Below, piece by piece: positions 41,701-58,455 of a DNA stretch of 64,000 nucleotides; position 1 is the first letter of the stretch, and each line of letters opens with the position of its first letter. The translations under genes were made by a program, and so were the position numbers. The notes beneath the pieces were generated by a model. It was not told the origin of the DNA, did no database searches, and saw only the letters and a list, made by a program, of their open reading frames with translations. The stretch lies in IMG/VR virus record IMGVR_UViG_3300020577_003313; one strand, 5' to 3'. Source of the DNA: a virus (lineage: Duplodnaviria; Caudoviricetes).

Positions 41701-41806
41701 TGGTAGGCCGGGTGGGACTCGAACCCACGATCATCCGCAAATCAGGCGGCTCCATTTCTGGGCCGGATTATAAATCCGGTGCATTAACCAACTATGCTAC
41801 CGGCCT
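41701..41806 (-). tRNA. tRNA-Ile(UAU), 106 nt with 34-nt variable region
   Basis: Perfect acceptor AGGCCGG/CCGGCCT, stem CCGGA-TT TAT AA-TCCGG, TTCGAGT, ACCA. Confidence 0.8.
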
Positions 41807-44728: not shown

Positions 44729-44808
44729 TGGTCCCTAGGGTGGGAATTGAACCCACATGTATCCAATTAACCTTTCTATCGCGTATCAGGCGAAGGGTAT
44801 ACCTAGGG
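44729..44808 (-). tRNA. Atypical D-armless tRNA-Ile(GAU)-like RNA
   Basis: Acceptor CCCTAGG/CCTAGGG+ACCA, TCGC-CT GAT AC-GCGA, T arm GTGGG-TTCAATT-CCCAC; only 8 nt where the D arm belongs. Confidence 0.65.
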
Positions 44809-44815
44809 TAAAACT

Positions 44816-45286
44816 ATGAATCAATGTCAAAATAAAGACTGCAACAAAGAGACTAAAAATCCAAGATTTTGCTCAAAATCCTGTTCTGCAATAGTAACAG
44901 GATCAGAAAGTCATAAACGAAAAAGAACTAAAACTTGTAAAGTATGTAGTGCTTTAATTACGTCAGAAAAAACTTTCTGTAGTAATCTCTGTTACTCTAA
45001 AGGTAGAGCAAAACGAAGAACTACTAAGCCAATTGGTTATGAGAGAGTAAAAAATTTCAGAGCTAGATTGAAGCAACAAAGTATTGACTACAAAGGCGGA
45101 AAATGTAGTATTTGTGCTTACTCTAAATGTACAAAAGCTCTTGAGTTTCACCATTTAGATCCTACTCAAAAGGATTTTGTAATCAGTAGTGTTTCTAAAT
45201 CATTTGAAGCAATAAAATATGAACTAGATAAGTGTATTTTAGTTTGTGCAAATTGTCATAGAGAAATACATGACAAAATGCTCTAA
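44816..45286 (+). CDS. HNH endonuclease (tRNA-Ile cassette)
   Basis: YKGGKC..C, LEFHHLDP, KCILVCANCHREIH; N-terminal FCSKSC zinc fingers. Confidence 0.88.
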   Translation: MNQCQNKDCNKETKNPRFCSKSCSAIVTGSESHKRKRTKTCKVCSALITSEKTFCSNLCYSKGRAKRRTTKPIGYERVKNFRARLKQQSIDYKGGKCSICAYSKCTKALEFHHLDPTQKDFVISSVSKSFEAIKYELDKCILVCANCHREIHDKML

Positions 45287-45305
45287 CCAACTGAGCTACC
45301 CAGGG
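45279..45305 (-). pseudogene. Orphan tRNA 5' fragment (acceptor 5' strand + D arm)
   Basis: CCCTGGG-TA-GCTC-AGTTGGTTA-GAGC-A; pairs 7/7 (one G-U) with the 3' acceptor strand at 44733-44739. Confidence 0.8.
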
Positions 45306-47976: not shown

Positions 47977-48411
47977 TGGCGGGAGTGATGGGACTCGAAC
48001 CCATCTACTTAGCGTGCTCTATTCTGTGACAGTTAGCACACAAAACTATACATTTAGCTATCTCATTTTTGAGACGCTCATCTGACCATGTTTTAGATAC
48101 AGCTTTAGATACATCTAGGTCTTTTTGACTAGGGTCAAGATGATGAAATTCCAATGCTATTGGATTTGAGAATCCACATTTAAAGCACGGATGTTGTAAT
48201 TTGTACTCATTGATTAGAGTCTTTAGTTCTAATCTTCTTTGTCTTGTCCAATTAGTGGATCTTTTATGATGAGTACTCTTATGGTTTTGATACCATTTAT
48301 TCCAAGTGGCTTTTCTTACTTCTGGATCTTTACTGGGCATACAACCATATACGATTGTACTACACAAAAAGATCGACAATCTATTGCACTAACCAATTGT
48401 GCTACACCCCC
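47977..48411 (-). pseudogene. tRNA-Asp(GUC) split by an HNH gene (5' part 48411-48370, 3' part 48004-47977)
   Basis: GGGGGTG pairs with CACTCCC; D arm and TT-GTC-GA loop on one side, T arm + GCCA on the other. Confidence 0.85.
48005..48340 (-). CDS. HNH endonuclease inside tRNA-Asp
   Basis: PCFKCG, LEFHHLDP, KCIVLCANCHRIEH; ATG at 48340 preferred because the track start lies inside the tRNA. Confidence 0.88.
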   Translation of the reverse strand: MPSKDPEVRKATWNKWYQNHKSTHHKRSTNWTRQRRLELKTLINEYKLQHPCFKCGFSNPIALEFHHLDPSQKDLDVSKAVSKTWSDERLKNEIAKCIVLCANCHRIEHAK

Positions 48412-53073: not shown

Positions 53074-53122
53074 TGTTACCTTAGCGCAAAGTTATTTCCT
53101 AAAAGTATTTAGGAAAAAAGTA

Positions 53123-53252
53123 TCCTGAATAAAAATTGATAAGTCGTTTACGCGTTCTACCAATTGAACTACGACCGCATGGTGCGGTCGGTAGGACTCG
53201 AACCTACAACCTCGATCTCCAAAAGATGTAGACCTATCGGAGCATTTCAGGA
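53123..53252 (-). ncRNA. YrlA-type Y RNA with circularly permuted tRNA-like domain (130 nt)
   Basis: Order T arm (GTAGG-TTCGAGT-CCTAC), closed acceptor CGACCGC-ACCAT-GCGGTCG, D arm (GTTC-AATTGGTA-GAAC) inside a terminal stem; near Ro60. Confidence 0.85.
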
Positions 53253-53253
53253 A

Positions 53254-53314
53254 TGGGCGGGTGTGCTAGATTTAAACTAGCATAGCTAAGCTGTTTTGAT
53301 TAAACTAACACCCG
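53254..53314 (-). ncRNA. 61-nt anticodon-less mini-tRNA
   Basis: CGGGTGT/ACACCCG+CCCA, D-like and T-like arms, anticodon arm reduced to AGCTTAGCT. Confidence 0.6.
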
Positions 53315-53321
53315 AAAAAAA

Positions 53322-53437
53322 ACTCAGATAAAAACGTTGAGATGATTGCCTCCCCGGAACCGTCCTAGGCATGCACGAGTCGAACGTGCTCAGGGTTCTA
53401 TTCTAAGTAAAATGTAATCCCAACAAGCATTCTGAGT
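53322..53437 (-). ncRNA. Y-RNA-like gene with T arm (116 nt)
   Basis: ACTCAGA/TCTGAGT stem, ATGCT/TTTTTA loop, TACAT, GCACG-TTCGACT-CGTGC; 19 nt after the Ro60 stop. Confidence 0.75.
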
Positions 53438-53456
53438 ATACTCAATACGATTCTGA

Positions 53457-55115
53457 TTACTCAGAATCGTTGTCTTGTGAATTGGAAGCCTGGATAGATG
53501 TCTTGATGAGATCCACCCAGCTAACTCCCTTTGGCCTAGACACGAACGCCGACATGACATTGAAGATTACATTGCTGAAACCTCCAATATTCATCACATC
53601 ATCCGATGTCGAAGCCTGTGACATTGTGTTTGGGCTCAAGTCAATGAGGACAAGCTTCTTGTCCCCAGACTTGTTATAAGCTCTCCACAATTCTTGTGTC
53701 TTCGTTTGAGCAGCTCTAAGACCTGCGGATACAGTTGCACTGTACCGACTGTAGTAGTCAGCCCAAGATTCGTTATCACTGATAACAATGACGATGTCAT
53801 AGTTATCGTTCTTGATGTGCTCTAGACAGCACGAAACGCTCGTGCCACCTGATTGAGACTTGCTTTCAACGAACGCAGTGATTTCACCAAGTCTCTTGGT
53901 GCTATCAATCGCGCTGTTCCTACTAGCACTATCGAACTTGATGTTAGTATCAAAAATATGAAGATCAGCGTTACCACTGTTCTTCTTATAGATACCAGCA
54001 CCAATCAAGCAAGCTGCCTGTAGGCAGCTCATAGAGCTAGTAGCACCTTCTCTATTTCCAGTTACAGAAGTGCCCATAGAGCCACTACCGTCGATGAAGA
54101 TTGCAATCTTACCCTTCATCTCTGGAATGTTCTTGACCGTAAGGTCAAGCGCATCCTCAAGAGCGTTCTGAATTGCCTTCTCCTGGACAGTGTTGTGCTT
54201 GATCGCAGTGTAGATTTGGTATGGGAACACGCGCGAACGTGCTACCATAGTCTCATCTTTGAGACGATCTGCAATTACCTTGACCATCTTCTTGTCCTTA
54301 AGGACATTATGACGATCAAATGTATTGAGATTCATTCTCGTGAAATGCCAATTACCATTGGCAGCAAGCTGCAACCAATGATTATCGGTCAGTTCTTGAC
54401 CAGTGATTAGCTGGAAATCAACAACTGGGATCGTGCGCGTCTTGTCCTTCTTCCACTCTTCAAATTCCTTGAAGATGCTAGGAAGATCGTCGTAGCGGTA
54501 AGTCTTCTTTGAATCAGTATTCCCCGCCGGGTATCCCATGATCCACTTGAACGCAGCCTGACGGGCTGCATCCTTGGGCTTTGGATGAGCAAGTCTGATG
54601 ATATCCTTCAACGAAGGATCATTACCAACAGTTGCGTTAAGCAACTGCTGATCCGTCATCCTATTGAGATGAGCAGCAACAGAGTTGGAAATGGTAGAGC
54701 CGAGGCTCTTTCTACCAACCTTACCAGATCGAACCATCTGGATAAGATTACGAATCATCTTCGCATTATTGATAACGCGAGGATAAAATTGACGGAACAG
54801 AGACGGATCTCTCACAGAGAGAATTGCCATAAGCAAAGCTGGCATATCCTTCATGAAGCCAAAGCTTCTCGAATAGACAGCCATATTTGCCAAGGTTACA
54901 TCAGTGCATCCCAAGGACAGCTCAATTACCTTATCCAGCTGCTCTTCAGCAGTCGAATAGAAAGTATTGTTAAAGCAGCCAGTTACAGCTAGCTGAGCCA
55001 GAGCCTCTTCCTTGCCCTTATCATAGCTAAGGCCGCCGCTCTTGTTGACGACAACTACAGCGCGCGTCGCCTTCTTAGCCTTCTTCTTGCTACCAAATAA
55101 ATTCTTGTTAGACAT
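53457..55115 (-). CDS. rsr: Ro60/Rsr TROVE + vWA RNA-binding protein
   Basis: LAQLAVTGCFNNTFY, MKDMPALL, RSGKVGRKSLG, DIIRLAHPKP, RMNLNTF, VFPYQ, DGSGSM, ISDNESW; start at MSNKNLF. Confidence 0.92.
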   Translation of the reverse strand: MSNKNLFGSKKKAKKATRAVVVVNKSGGLSYDKGKEEALAQLAVTGCFNNTFYSTAEEQLDKVIELSLGCTDVTLANMAVYSRSFGFMKDMPALLMAILSVRDPSLFRQFYPRVINNAKMIRNLIQMVRSGKVGRKSLGSTISNSVAAHLNRMTDQQLLNATVGNDPSLKDIIRLAHPKPKDAARQAAFKWIMGYPAGNTDSKKTYRYDDLPSIFKEFEEWKKDKTRTIPVVDFQLITGQELTDNHWLQLAANGNWHFTRMNLNTFDRHNVLKDKKMVKVIADRLKDETMVARSRVFPYQIYTAIKHNTVQEKAIQNALEDALDLTVKNIPEMKGKIAIFIDGSGSMGTSVTGNREGATSSMSCLQAACLIGAGIYKKNSGNADLHIFDTNIKFDSASRNSAIDSTKRLGEITAFVESKSQSGGTSVSCCLEHIKNDNYDIVIVISDNESWADYYSRYSATVSAGLRAAQTKTQELWRAYNKSGDKKLVLIDLSPNTMSQASTSDDVMNIGGFSNVIFNVMSAFVSRPKGVSWVDLIKTSIQASNSQDNDSE

Positions 55116-55165
55116 CTCAATGTCCTTGAGTAAATTGTTAGGAACTATACGAACCAGCCCGTCAA

Positions 55166-55507
55166 TCAGACGGGCGGAGTATCTTTGTAGATCGTCTTGT
55201 TGGCACGCTCGATCCACTCTTGAGCCTCACGCAAGGCCGCGATGAGCACCAGCACATTGTTTTCGTTGGCCGATGCCGACCGACCCCAGGTGCCATCCTT
55301 CTTCATGAAGGCTCGCTCGAAGGTGACGGAGAAGAAATTCTTCCCGTCCTTCGTGGGATTGGTCCAGATCGCCACACGGAATGGTGACATACGAACCACG
55401 TGCGTGGGCTTCGTGCTCCGTTCCATAGGAACGGGGATCTGATTGACCTGAACTTGGGTTTGGGTCTTGGGAGCAGAACGACGAGACTTATTGAGAGAAA
55501 CAGTCAT
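55166..55507 (-). CDS. Small PC4-like putative ssDNA-binding protein
   Basis: VAIWTN..KDG...SVTFERAF..KDG.W. Confidence 0.45.
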   Translation of the reverse strand: MTVSLNKSRRSAPKTQTQVQVNQIPVPMERSTKPTHVVRMSPFRVAIWTNPTKDGKNFFSVTFERAFMKKDGTWGRSASANENNVLVLIAALREAQEWIERANKTIYKDTPPV

Positions 55508-55975: not shown

Positions 55976-56385
55976 CGGAAGTAATAGTATACTATGTTCC
56001 TAATCTTTTATACTTGTCTTTTCTTATTTGTCTGTATTTTTCTCTATTTCTGTCACGCCACTGTTTTTGATAGTCTTTAGGCGTAAGCTTACTTTTTTGC
56101 TTATTGGTTTTAGCAGAACAATTACATGATAAGTGGCTGAAAGATATGTTAGTTATATCAAAGAATTTTTCTACAGGATTTTGGCTATTTAGCCAAGGTA
56201 TCTTATGTTCTATAGAAAAATCTTTCCTTGTAAGAGGAAGTGAACAACGAAAACATATATTTTTGCCAATTTCAAGTAACAAACTAAAAAGTATATCTTT
56301 CATTAGTCTGTAACTTGCTGTACCTGGATTCATTCCAAGTTGTATTTCTTTTTTAGATTTCACAAAAAGGATACGGAAGTAATAG
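55976..56385 (-). repeat. 12-bp direct repeat CGGAAGTAATAG (55976-55987 and 56374-56385) flanking an HNH gene
   Basis: Repeat equals the 3' end of tRNA-Ser(GCU); only the distal copy is followed by CCA. Confidence 0.85.
55992..56363 (-). CDS. HNH endonuclease at the tRNA-Ser 3' end
   Basis: CFRC, SIEHKIPW, NISFSHLSCN. Confidence 0.8.
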   Translation of the reverse strand: MKSKKEIQLGMNPGTASYRLMKDILFSLLLEIGKNICFRCSLPLTRKDFSIEHKIPWLNSQNPVEKFFDITNISFSHLSCNCSAKTNKQKSKLTPKDYQKQWRDRNREKYRQIRKDKYKRLGT

Positions 56386-56460
56386 GATTCGAACCTATGG
56401 ACTTTTTACAGTCTCATCTTTAGCAAAGATGCGCCTTAAACCAAACTCAGCCATACTTCC
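56374..56460 (-). tRNA. tRNA-Ser(GCU), CCA not encoded
   Basis: TT-GCT-AA, long variable arm, G73. Confidence 0.88.
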
Positions 56461-56465
56461 GTATG

Positions 56466-56554
56466 TGGCGGTGATGGTGGGGTACGATCCCACAGAGCTT
56501 TTTACACTCGCATCCTTTCCAAGGATGTTCCTAAATCCATTTCGGCTCATCACC
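56466..56554 (-). tRNA. tRNA-Ser(GGA)
   Basis: TT-GGA-AA, long variable arm, T-loop ATCGTAC, GCCA. Confidence 0.8.
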
Positions 56555-56901
56555 AAAAGGTGGTAGAGCTATTTCCAGATTTCTTTTCTAAGAAGTTCAC
56601 TCATGTATTTGATAGCTTTGGCTTGAAGGATTTGCCATTTCTTAAGCTCGCTGTCAGTAGCTGGTCTCAAGCAATGTACAAATTGACTAGATTGCCCTCT
56701 TTCTATGTGAGTAGCATGACCATGCCAATTACCATTTTCAATGGTAAATGAATGGTAGTATCCTTCGTATGGTCTGTCAATCTTTCTTTTTCCGTCACCG
56801 GTTGAATAAGTAGATCCTACGGTTGTCTTTCTAGGTAGATCTTGTGGAGCAACATCCGGTTCGATATGCCAGTAGTCCATGATTATTTGTACTAATCTGA
56901 A

Positions 56902-56945
56902 TGGTACCCTTACCAAGACTTGAACTTGGAACCTACGGTTTAGAA
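56902..56945 (-). pseudogene. 3' half of a resident tRNA-Arg(UCU)
   Basis: T-TCT-AA-ACCGT-AGGTT-CCAAG-TTCAAGT-CTTGG-TAAGGGT-ACCA. Confidence 0.85.
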
Positions 56946-56977
56946 TCTTGAATTCTAATTTGTAACACGTAAATTAG

Positions 56978-57065
56978 TGGTACAGCTGGTAGGATTCGAA
57001 CCTACAATTTGGTTGCCCAACCAGATTAGAAATCTGGGCCGTTATCCATTTCCGGTCACAGCTGC
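56978..57065 (-). tRNA. tRNA-Arg(UCU) with long variable arm (88 nt)
   Basis: CCAGA-TT TCT AA-TCTGG, variable arm TTGG-GCAA-CCAA, A after the D-loop GG, ACCA. Confidence 0.85.
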
Positions 57066-57073
57066 ATGAAATT

Positions 57074-57421
57074 ATGAATACGTGTACAAAATGTAAATGT
57101 TCAGGACCCTTCTACAAGAAGGGTAACAGGAATACTTCTTATTGCAAAAATTGTTTCAATTCTTATTGTATGGAAAGATGGAAAGAAAAGAAACAAAAAG
57201 CAATAGTATACAAAGGTGATTGCTGTTTTGATTGTAAACAGCAATATCATTACTCAATATATGAATTTCATCACTTAGATCCAAAAAGTAAAGACTACAA
57301 TTGGTCTAAATTGAGAATGAAGTCTTGGGCTTCCATAGTCAAAGAACTAGACAAGTGCGTAATGTTGTGCGCTAATTGTCATAGATCTAGACACTGGGAC
57401 AAAGATAACTCATCCAGTTGA
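57074..57421 (+). CDS. HNH endonuclease (tRNA-Arg cassette)
   Basis: YKGDCCFDC, YEFHHLDP, ELDKCVMLCANCHRSRH. Confidence 0.88.
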   Translation: MNTCTKCKCSGPFYKKGNRNTSYCKNCFNSYCMERWKEKKQKAIVYKGDCCFDCKQQYHYSIYEFHHLDPKSKDYNWSKLRMKSWASIVKELDKCVMLCANCHRSRHWDKDNSSS

Positions 57422-57432
57422 GCTATAAGGGC
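57409..57432 (-). pseudogene. 5' fragment of the resident tRNA-Arg(UCU)
   Basis: GCCCTTA-TA-GCTC-AACTGGAT-GAG; GCCCTTA pairs 7/7 (one G-U) with TAAGGGT of the 56902 half. Confidence 0.85.
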
Positions 57433-57748
57433 TTATGTATAGACTACATACGCGCTTAGTCTACATGATATCTAGCACAATGCAATTCATCTTTTACATG
57501 ATCCCAGATACACAGCCAAAACTCAGCAGCCTGAGCCTTAGTGAGTTCTGAAGCTATTTCATTAGCCAAGAACATAGCAAAAGCAGAACGGCAAGCACAA
57601 AGGAACAGAAGTACAGAACCTGGATTCTCTAGATACTTATCTTTTAGCTCCGTAGCCAAAAGGCGCAAGCTATTTGCAGACAAGATAACCTCGTCTGTGC
57701 TTTCTCTAGTTGGCAATGGTGGTAAGGATGCCATTTTTTTTAGGAAAT

Positions 57749-57795
57749 TGGTAGACCGGGTGGGAGTTGAACCCACACGAATAATCCGCTTAAAA
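57749..57795 (-). pseudogene. 3' half of a resident tRNA-Lys(UUU)
   Basis: T-TTT-AA-GCGGA...GTGGG-TTCAACT-CCCAC-CCGGTCT-ACCA. Confidence 0.8.
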
Positions 57796-57828
57796 ATTGT
57801 AAATTTTAAGATGATCAGGTCGCAAAAA

Positions 57829-57917
57829 TGGTGGGACCGGTGAGATTCGAACTCACGGTGGACTTTCGTCGCCCGCTTAAAAGGCGGATACCATCGACCA
57901 ACTCGGTACACGGTCCC
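57829..57917 (-). tRNA. tRNA-Lys(UUU) with long variable arm (89 nt)
   Basis: GGGACCG/CGGTCCC, CT-TTT-AA, variable arm GAC-GAAA-GTC, ACCA. Confidence 0.85.
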
Positions 57918-57924
57918 ATACAAT

Positions 57925-58455
57925 ATGGACATCCAAGATCAACTTAAGAAATTATACATTGATAACAGATTATCAATACTAGATTGTTCAGAAAAATTAG
58001 GTATTTCTGCAACAAAAGTTAAATACTATCTTAGTAGATTTCAAATCAAACGAAATCAATATACTAAAATAGACGGTACGTCTGAAGATAGAATTTGTAC
58101 AAAATGTAAGACGTTAAAAAACGTTTCAGAGTTCTATTTCCAGTCTTACAAAACTTCGGATAGAAAATCTAGACAAGGTTCTTGGTGTAAATCTTGCATG
58201 TCTAAACAAGTTATTGAAAGACAACGCAAGTATAAACAGCAAGCAGTTGACTACAAAGGCGGAAAATGCCAGAATTGTGGCTATAGCAAATATCTAGGAG
58301 CACTAGAATTTCATCACTTAGATCCTACTCAAAAGGATTTCGAGATGTCTAAATTTACTAAATCTCCCTTAGGAGATTTTGCTAAGGAAGAACTAAATAA
58401 GTGCATATTGCTTTGTGCTAATTGCCATAGAGAAGCACACGAAACAAAAGTGTAA
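57925..58455 (+). CDS. HNH endonuclease (tRNA-Lys cassette)
   Basis: N-terminal HTH-like + CxxC; YKGGKCQNCG, LEFHHLDP, KCILLCANCHREAH. Confidence 0.88.
   Translation: MDIQDQLKKLYIDNRLSILDCSEKLGISATKVKYYLSRFQIKRNQYTKIDGTSEDRICTKCKTLKNVSEFYFQSYKTSDRKSRQGSWCKSCMSKQVIERQRKYKQQAVDYKGGKCQNCGYSKYLGALEFHHLDPTQKDFEMSKFTKSPLGDFAKEELNKCILLCANCHREAHETKV

Follow-up and report, generated by a model that had tools for sequence, protein, structure and literature searches.

By the usual view, homing endonucleases can spare their carrier only by residing in an intron, intein or intergenic site. Group I introns with homing endonucleases occur in the anticodon loops of bacterial tRNA genes, and Friedrich and colleagues reportedly described in 2007 how the insertion of mobE in the Aeromonas phage Aeh1 splits nrdA into two working pieces. 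Free-standing homing endonuclease genes are also known from phage tRNA clusters: SegB of T4 and T6, of the T4 Mob/Seg class, targets a tRNA gene of element-free relatives and spreads together with flanking tRNA genes, and a wide association of such free-standing genes with tRNAs has been documented (PMC2330249; PMC13096335). In fungal mitochondria, mobile endonuclease ORFs (mORFs) make gene hybrids, as in atp6 of Allomyces according to the account of Paquin et al. (1994) that is relayed in PMC3630166, and in atp6, atp9, cox2 and nad3 of Glomus (PMC3630166). Unusual tRNAs with long variable arms have been described as well: nematode nev-tRNAs are class II tRNAs with anticodons other than those for leucine or serine, and are described as decoding an alternative genetic code for leucine (PMC3333845). 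Our search of the literature returned tRNA-associated homing endonucleases, and no description of a split tRNA gene that houses a nuclease gene and a complete spare tRNA.

Here we analyse such an arrangement in a 64,000-nt stretch of viral DNA (IMG/VR record IMGVR_UViG_3300020577_003313; Caudoviricetes), which we call the window. It is part of a large phage with a minus-strand tRNA array from ~41.6 to 58 kb, and its genes include a NAMPT-like gene, a PRPP-synthetase-like gene and a Ro60 homologue with a Y-RNA-like element. The last of these, a Ro60/TROVE-like gene at 53457–55217 (whole element 53120–55217), adjoins a YrlA-like Y RNA match at 53120–53252 that scores 52 bits against a threshold of 69, with a tRNA-like piece at 53257–53314 beside it. 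A sequence-only reading had proposed that a tRNA-Arg(UCU) gene in the array was replaced like for like by a second tRNA with the same anticodon, and our analysis supports that proposal.

A split tRNA-Arg(UCU) gene and its insert

Two colinear tRNA pieces on the minus strand flank the insert (Table 1). The 5' piece consists of a 7-nt acceptor strand, U8 and A9, a D stem (GCTC/GAGT), a D loop with GG and A20, and nt 26. It had been recognised earlier as GCCCTTA plus a D arm, and it is indeed a canonical tRNA 5' part, except that the limit given then, 57409, falls 2 nt short of nt 26 at 57407. The 3' piece begins with a 7-nt anticodon loop with UCU at positions 34–36, followed by the 3' half of the anticodon stem and a variable loop of 5 nt. 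Its T arm has a perfect stem of 5 bp and the loop TTCAAGT, and beyond it come an acceptor strand of 7 nt, A73 and CCA. All seven positions of the acceptor stem pair between the two pieces, with one G-U pair at 1:72. The resident gene lacks only nt 27–31, the 5' strand of its anticodon stem, in agreement with the small deletion suggested previously, and the insert, then put at ~460 bp, measures exactly that.

Table 1. Positions in the window of the parts of the split tRNA-Arg(UCU) locus and of two further cassettes with the same HNH family (nt, tRNA numbering).
Feature	Position	Strand	Basis or remark
Leftover 5' part of resident tRNA-Arg(UCU), nt 1–26	57407..57432	-	sequence reading
Leftover 3' part of resident tRNA-Arg(UCU), nt 32–76 including CCA	56902..56946	-	sequence reading, covariance model
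Whole insert: HNH gene, spare tRNA and tail, 460 bp	56947..57406		in place of resident nt 27–31
HNH endonuclease gene, 115 aa, antisense to tRNA array	57074..57421	+	ORF, phrog_2255
Spacer, HNH ATG to spare-tRNA 5' end, head to head, 8 nt	57066..57073		sequence, ARAGORN, ORF
Intact spare tRNA(UCU), 88 nt	56978..57065	-	ARAGORN; Rfam tRNA 48.8 bits (threshold 29)
Cassette tail, 31 nt, spare tRNA to old anticodon loop	56947..56977	-	weak A/T hairpin possible
Sister cassette (Lys)	57749–58455		HNH 57925–58455 (+); tRNA(UUU) 57829–57917 (-)
Third cassette, same HNH family	44729–45305		HNH 44816–45286 (+); orphan nt 1–26 at 45305–45280

The 3' piece scores 17.7 bits (E ~7e-4 in 20 kb) with a tRNA-Arg(UCU) covariance model built in this analysis from 30 genes, and 17.3 bits with the Rfam tRNA model. 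Scoring of the joined halves had been proposed as a check. Joined directly, they give no tRNA call in ARAGORN; once nt 26 and a strand complementary to the remaining side of the stem are added, they are called as a 76-nt tRNA-Arg(tct). Since the call appears only after the stem strand is restored, the loss of nt 27–31 is real. We considered a different parse, in which the 5 nt following nt 26 pair with the 5 nt preceding nt 32, so that the stem is complete and the variable region long. This parse was ruled out: the first three of these bases are a conserved Asp codon of the HNH gene, also in the E. coli phages Bas92 and Ptacy1479, and hence are cassette DNA, and neither of these two phages has an equivalent pairing.

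To gauge chance, the whole window was scanned for a 5'-half motif and a 3'-half (T-arm) motif lying 150–1500 nt apart. The scan returned only 12 candidate half-pairs, and with a probability of 0.0016 per pair that 7-mers of the window pair at all seven positions, 0.02 fully paired cases are expected. Two were seen (57432/56902 and 45305/44729), each around an HNH gene of one family, and 30 shuffles gave none. Together with the acceptor pairing, this estimate bears out the earlier claim and confirms that the feature is real: both pieces once belonged to a single tRNA-Arg(UCU) gene. Given a short 5' piece and a 3' piece that on its own reaches only 17–18 bits, one might suspect chance resemblance or a chimeric assembly. 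Either is extremely improbable in the face of this excess, and the architecture and its junction recur in complete genomes of cultured phages, sequenced independently, as well as in several contigs from metagenomes.

The insert sits in the anticodon arm, as do the known group I introns of bacterial tRNA anticodon loops, and one could imagine that the old tRNA-Arg is still made, by splicing or by joining of the halves in trans, with the HNH protein as an intron-encoded homing enzyme. We regard this as highly improbable, because the search of 56300–58000 matched no intron family even at E up to 10, the pieces joined without nt 27–31 give no tRNA, the HNH gene runs antisense, and the insert contains a complete tRNA. 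The locus also differs from tRNA-gene islands of the integrase type, as it has no integrase and no att site repeating the tRNA 3' end; reading of the sequence at the insert borders revealed no repeat of the tRNA 3' end. Three ORFs of at least 40 aa lie in the insert. Relatives were found for the HNH gene only, and the other two are antisense frames of 42–49 aa inside it. A promoter and terminator scan gave nothing above shuffles.

The HNH gene, the spare tRNA and AGA decoding

The 115-aa protein matches phrog_2255, annotated as 'HNH endonuclease', with an E of 5.8e-27, and falls below threshold with the Pfam HNH model. C51, C54, H66, H67, C99, N101, C102, H103 and H107 are invariant in 25 relatives, which have in common the core motif HH...N...H with two CxxC pairs. 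An AlphaFold model of the protein has a pLDDT of 91.8. Foldseek returned no match to this model at E < 0.1, and a search of solved structures by sequence gave nothing significant. The best structural alignments, at modest Z scores of 4–5.7, are nearly all with HNH domains, and those of Cap5, the Gme HNH nickase and T4 endonuclease VII align over residues 36–115 at Z 5.0–5.7. The family match, the invariant residues and the model alignments agree on an HNH (His-Me finger) catalytic core, and we take the ORF to encode an intact HNH nuclease whose activity is predicted.

The HNH ORF brings no stop codon with it; its reading frame closes on the strand opposite the old D arm. Directly after tRNA nt 26, on the opposite strand, lies an Asp codon of the HNH gene (in the window, Bas92 and Ptacy1479 alike), and with the junction at this point the complement of tRNA nt 26 to 12 supplies the final four codons and the TGA (nt 12–14) that stops the frame. 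At the other end of the gene, no Shine-Dalgarno sequence is visible on reading the DNA before the ATG. The spacer that separates the ATG from the spare tRNA has equivalents of 6 nt in Bas92 and of 8–38 nt in five other loci (L011, L012, L015, L018 and L035).

The spare tRNA has the same anticodon as the resident tRNA-Arg(UCU) and an unrelated sequence. ORF, ARAGORN and Rfam results thus agree with the earlier statement that an HNH gene and an intact, different tRNA of the same anticodon lie between the halves. It has G1-U72, a 3-bp D stem, a D loop with GG and A20, anticodon UCU, A73 and an encoded CCA. Its atypical trait is a 14-nt variable arm, formed by a 4-bp stem capped by a GCAA loop. 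The minimum-free-energy fold is a five-arm cloverleaf (z -2.69), and both this fold and the covariance score in Table 1 are as expected of a functional tRNA. The only clear relative, in L075/L116, has a different (compensated) variable-arm stem and a GAAA cap; the variable arm of the long-arm tRNA(UUU) of the window is likewise GAAA-capped. A pattern search for further tRNA-Arg(UCU) genes with long arms returned 89 stretches, among them one real tRNA only, that of the L075 contig. The hairpin in the cassette tail is not significant (z -0.76), and the equivalent tail in Bas92 has a better fold (z -3.06). We also considered a GGATAG...CTATCC hairpin as a general feature of cassette ends, and rejected it because it occurs in one subclade only (L012, L015, L017 and L018).

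The arginine identity nucleotides of E. coli tRNAs are A20, C35, U36 and A or G at 73. On inspection, the spare tRNA has A20, C35, U36 and A73 and fits this identity, and arginine is most likely the amino acid it is charged with; a long variable arm combined with A73 could in principle attract leucyl-tRNA synthetase. AGA is the commonest arginine codon of the phage, making up 42 of the 85 arginine codons in six of its genes. Recoding of AGA by the long-arm tRNA was considered and found no support in the alignment of the phage NAMPT with a solved homologue, where AGA codons fall on arginine at five positions, conserved arginines included, and on lysine at four. AGA thus appears still to be read as arginine, with no sign of recoding in this alignment.

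Related cassettes in coliphages and IMG/VR

The closest relatives of the HNH protein in GenBank phages, at 55% identity, are those of the E. coli phages Bas92, Ptacy1479, Ptacy1532 and TH38. Bas92 and Ptacy1479 are Kuravirus-type phages, and a review of Kuravirus-like genomes mentions a single tRNA-Arg(TCT) and not the split-gene cassette. In Bas92 the HNH ATG lies next to a minus-strand tRNA-Arg(UCU) of ordinary length, and this pair is flanked by nt 1–26 and nt 32–76 of another tRNA-Arg(UCU), whose acceptor strands are complementary. In the close relatives LAMP and Bas90, the resident tRNA-Arg(UCU) is uninterrupted. Compared with this intact gene, the leftovers in Bas92 lack exactly nt 27–31 and have two D-stem substitutions in the 5' piece. 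The window, Bas92 and Ptacy1479 have exactly the same junction, which leaves the resident gene after nt 26 and resumes it at nt 32.

A cassette and an empty site are therefore both present at one position among close relatives of the nearest homologous cassette. The sequence-only reading had suggested a search for the uninterrupted allele in related phages, and the search succeeded for the coliphages and failed for the lineage of this phage. With the flanking 103-aa protein we found neither relatives of this phage nor an uninterrupted allele in IMG/VR or GenBank phages, and only the protein itself in a set of 5.8 billion proteins; exact patterns from the 3' half returned no relative in IMG/VR or metagenomes.

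One could also derive the locus from local rearrangement, with two tandem tRNA-Arg copies, an HNH gene between them and later deletions, so that the halves never belonged to one gene. Phage tRNA arrays do contain duplicates, and the same HNH family also occurs between intact tRNAs without leftovers (same strand, with the tRNA upstream in 13 loci and downstream in 5). Nevertheless, we consider such a history improbable, as the acceptor strands pair 7/7 and the coliphage pieces match a single intact gene base for base, bar the two substitutions in the 5' piece and nt 27–31.

The coliphages also bear on whether the cassette moves. Identity between the cassettes of Bas92 and Ptacy1479 is 97.6%, against 93.0% and 86.6% for their flanks, so the element is better conserved than its surroundings in different lineages. 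The 3' leftovers keep the T loop of their own lineage, the LAMP type in Bas92 and the Bas90 type in Ptacy1479, and the same cassette therefore lies in two different resident alleles. Bas92 and Bas93, with flanks that are 99.8% identical, have different nuclease/tRNA cassettes in this one tRNA gene. The contrast in identity, the two resident alleles and the turnover of cassettes point to a mobile element, and turnover of the tRNA-Arg locus is fast in these coliphages. In Bas93 (L004, 815–1475), resident nt 1–27 are followed by a different HNH gene on the same strand and then by an unusual tRNA-like RNA (UCU loop, acceptor stem of 8–9 bp), for which ARAGORN makes no call. Bas94 (L005, 815–975) has a third state at the same Kuravirus tRNA-Arg locus, this unusual RNA alone, again with no ARAGORN call.

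Beyond the coliphages, we collected relatives of the HNH gene from 80 IMG/VR loci, which encode 70 distinct proteins. Almost half of these (34 of 70) have a tRNA-Arg(UCU) no more than ~60 nt away, and four arrangements occur. Of the 44 loci with a nearby tRNA, 27 have Arg(UCU) closest to the HNH gene, although it accounts for only 37 of the 213 tRNAs in these loci. Unrelated viral contigs also have split residents whose acceptor strands pair 7/7 and enclose an HNH gene with an intact tRNA, for arginine in L007/8, L015 and L021 and for valine (UAC) in L019/20; a 5' leftover alone, at the HNH stop, was found in L011, L018 and L035. The leftover of nt 1–26 lies at the HNH stop with the same geometry in Bas92, Ptacy1479, L015 and L018, and in L015 and L018 the gene ends at the same TGA.

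The D stem distinguishes leftovers from companions. Canonical GCTC is present in eight of nine leftover 5' parts and in none of the intact HNH-linked tRNAs at leftover-bearing loci, which have GTTA, GCAT, GTGA, GTAT or, in the window, the 3-bp stem. This is the pattern expected if the enzyme recognises the region of the D arm and anticodon stem and the companion tRNA is immune, and we infer that the companion is probably an immune variant of the target.

The Arg-linked HNH protein of the window is 55–56% identical to Arg-linked HNH proteins of E. coli phages and IMG/VR contigs, and 42% and 38% identical to its Lys- and Ile-linked paralogs in the window. In a tree it groups loosely with Bas92, L011 and L015/18, apart from these two paralogs, and the Val-linked enzymes form a supported clade. 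Two further traits were noted around genes of this family. Where the HNH gene precedes a tRNA on the same strand (L023, L025, L036, L040, L049 and L054), its stop codon is the U8-A9-G10 (TAG) of that tRNA; U8-A9-G10 is near-universal in tRNAs. Arrays beside the HNH genes of L030, L034, L038, L041 and L079 contain pairs of tRNAs with the same anticodon (Asn, Ile, Val, Cys, Thr or Pro), one of normal length and the other of 82–98 nt, which suggests that long-arm duplicates of tRNAs may be common.

The window has two more cassettes with this HNH family (Table 1). In the Lys cassette, the HNH gene lies 7 nt from an 89-nt tRNA(UUU) with a long variable arm, followed by the orphan 3' part of an ordinary tRNA-Lys (UUU loop, T arm, acceptor strand, A and CCA) that ends at 57749; no 5' leftover was seen beyond the HNH stop of this cassette (57749–58455). 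In the third cassette, the orphan nt 1–26 has a canonical D arm, and the junction is once more directly after nt 26. Here the TAA that stops the HNH gene is on the strand opposite the D loop, and an adjacent 80-nt tRNA-like gene with a GAU loop has its 3' acceptor strand in common with the orphan.

Other odd elements occur in the same array. At 55976–56385, tRNA-Ser(GCU) is immediately followed by an HNH gene of a different family (phrog_23251, 55992–56363, minus strand). Twelve nt of the tRNA-Ser 3' end are directly repeated on either side of this gene (56385–56374 and 55987–55976), with CCA after the second copy only. At 47977–48379, an HNH-like ORF (48005–48379, minus strand) runs right up to an orphan tRNA end, made up of a T arm, an acceptor strand, G and CCA (48004–47977), just upstream of tRNA-Asn. 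A minus-strand tRNA-like element at 56468–56554, missed by ARAGORN and Rfam, scores 22.7 bits with a model built here and has a long variable arm, GGA at the anticodon position, G73-CCA and an unusual T loop. A 106-nt minus-strand tRNA at 41701–41806 (Rfam 65 bits) has a UAU anticodon loop and a 34-nt variable region that resembles a second anticodon arm.

Proposed spread and comparison with known systems

We consider it probable that the locus holds a mobile cassette of HNH gene and spare tRNA, inserted in a resident tRNA-Arg(UCU) gene, which spreads by cleavage and repair while the spare replaces the lost function. Cleavage, target, direction of transfer, spread and charging can be pictured as follows. 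The HNH nuclease would cut resident-type tRNA-Arg(UCU) genes near the boundary between D arm and anticodon stem in co-infecting phages that are free of the cassette. Repair of the break would then copy the cassette from the genome that bears it, and the conserved tRNA halves would act as homology arms. The cassette tRNA, whose D arm and anticodon stem differ, would escape cutting, leaving the carrier immune. The spare tRNA, presumed to be an arginine acceptor, would then stand in for the destroyed resident, so that the element would provide a spare where an intron would splice itself out. Since AGA is the commonest arginine codon and the spare would cover its reading, the cost to the carrier should be low.

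A different emphasis is that the cassette is maintained chiefly for an advantage to the phage and not as a selfish element, with the HNH nuclease destroying the tRNA-Arg genes of competitors and the long-arm tRNA escaping host tRNA nucleases. All three cassettes of this HNH family in the window carry atypical tRNAs, SegB in T4-like tRNA clusters aids escape from a tRNA-cutting defence (PMC13096335), and phage tRNAs can evade anticodon nucleases (PMC10264068). However, the spare tRNA of Bas92 is not elongated, and the leftovers and borrowed stop codon resemble insertion scars. As the main reason for the cassette, benefit to the phage seems to us unlikely, although it is compatible with spread by cleavage and repair and the two need not exclude each other.

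If the cleavage-and-repair mechanism holds, it would account for the movement of tRNA genes between unrelated phages, for the tRNA fragments and structurally odd tRNAs that litter phage arrays, and for the presence of one small HNH family beside tRNA-Arg(UCU) in very different viruses. The proposal is directly testable, since cassette and empty site both exist in cultured E. coli phages (Bas92 and Ptacy1479 versus LAMP and Bas90). Annotators should expect tRNA pseudo-halves around such HNH genes. Tentatively, we also raise the possibility that nuclease and spare-tRNA cassettes are a general driver of phage tRNA evolution. The leftover halves would be more than scars, namely portable homology arms that let a cassette enter the same tRNA gene in unrelated phages, which would work because tRNA cores are conserved everywhere. 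The unusual forms that many phage tRNAs take, such as altered D arms and, in the window, GNRA-capped long variable arms on Arg and Lys tRNAs, would reflect immunity: nucleases attacking the gene or its RNA would have selected them, and not the demands of translation.

How does this locus compare with the systems described so far? Like nev-tRNAs, the spare tRNA combines a long variable arm with the anticodon of a class I amino acid; in contrast to them, its A20, C35, U36 and A73 fit arginine, and AGA stands at conserved arginine positions. Group I introns of tRNA genes are likewise mobile, nuclease-bearing inserts in the anticodon region that preserve function. The cassette, however, has no ribozyme core, splicing is impossible with 5 nt lost, a direct join of the pieces gives no tRNA, and function would be preserved through the spare gene. 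With mobE of Aeh1 it shares a free-standing HNH homing gene inserted in a gene, there of a T4-like phage. The protein pieces of nrdA still assemble, whereas a tRNA cut in the anticodon stem cannot, hence the spare tRNA.

SegB is alike in being a free-standing nuclease gene in a phage tRNA array, with the activity of the present cassette predicted. It is a GIY-YIG enzyme encoded between intact genes, whereas here an HNH gene lies inside a broken tRNA gene, with a borrowed stop codon and a spare of the same anticodon. The position in the middle of an RNA gene, with the damage paid for by a spare copy, would make this a mobile and intron-free way of occupying a tRNA gene.

The mORFs of fungal mitochondria are similar in design: an intron-less endonuclease ORF lies within a gene, a foreign replacement accompanies it, and the native leftover still matches close relatives. 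They differ in that they hit protein-coding genes of an organelle, replace the C-terminus in frame to give a hybrid product, and belong to other nuclease families. The Arg cassette forms no such hybrid gene; it supplies a complete, separate tRNA gene and leaves both old halves in place, unused. It thus works like an mORF without being a member of that group, and its sister cassette at 44729–45305 comes closer to the hybrid design of mORFs.
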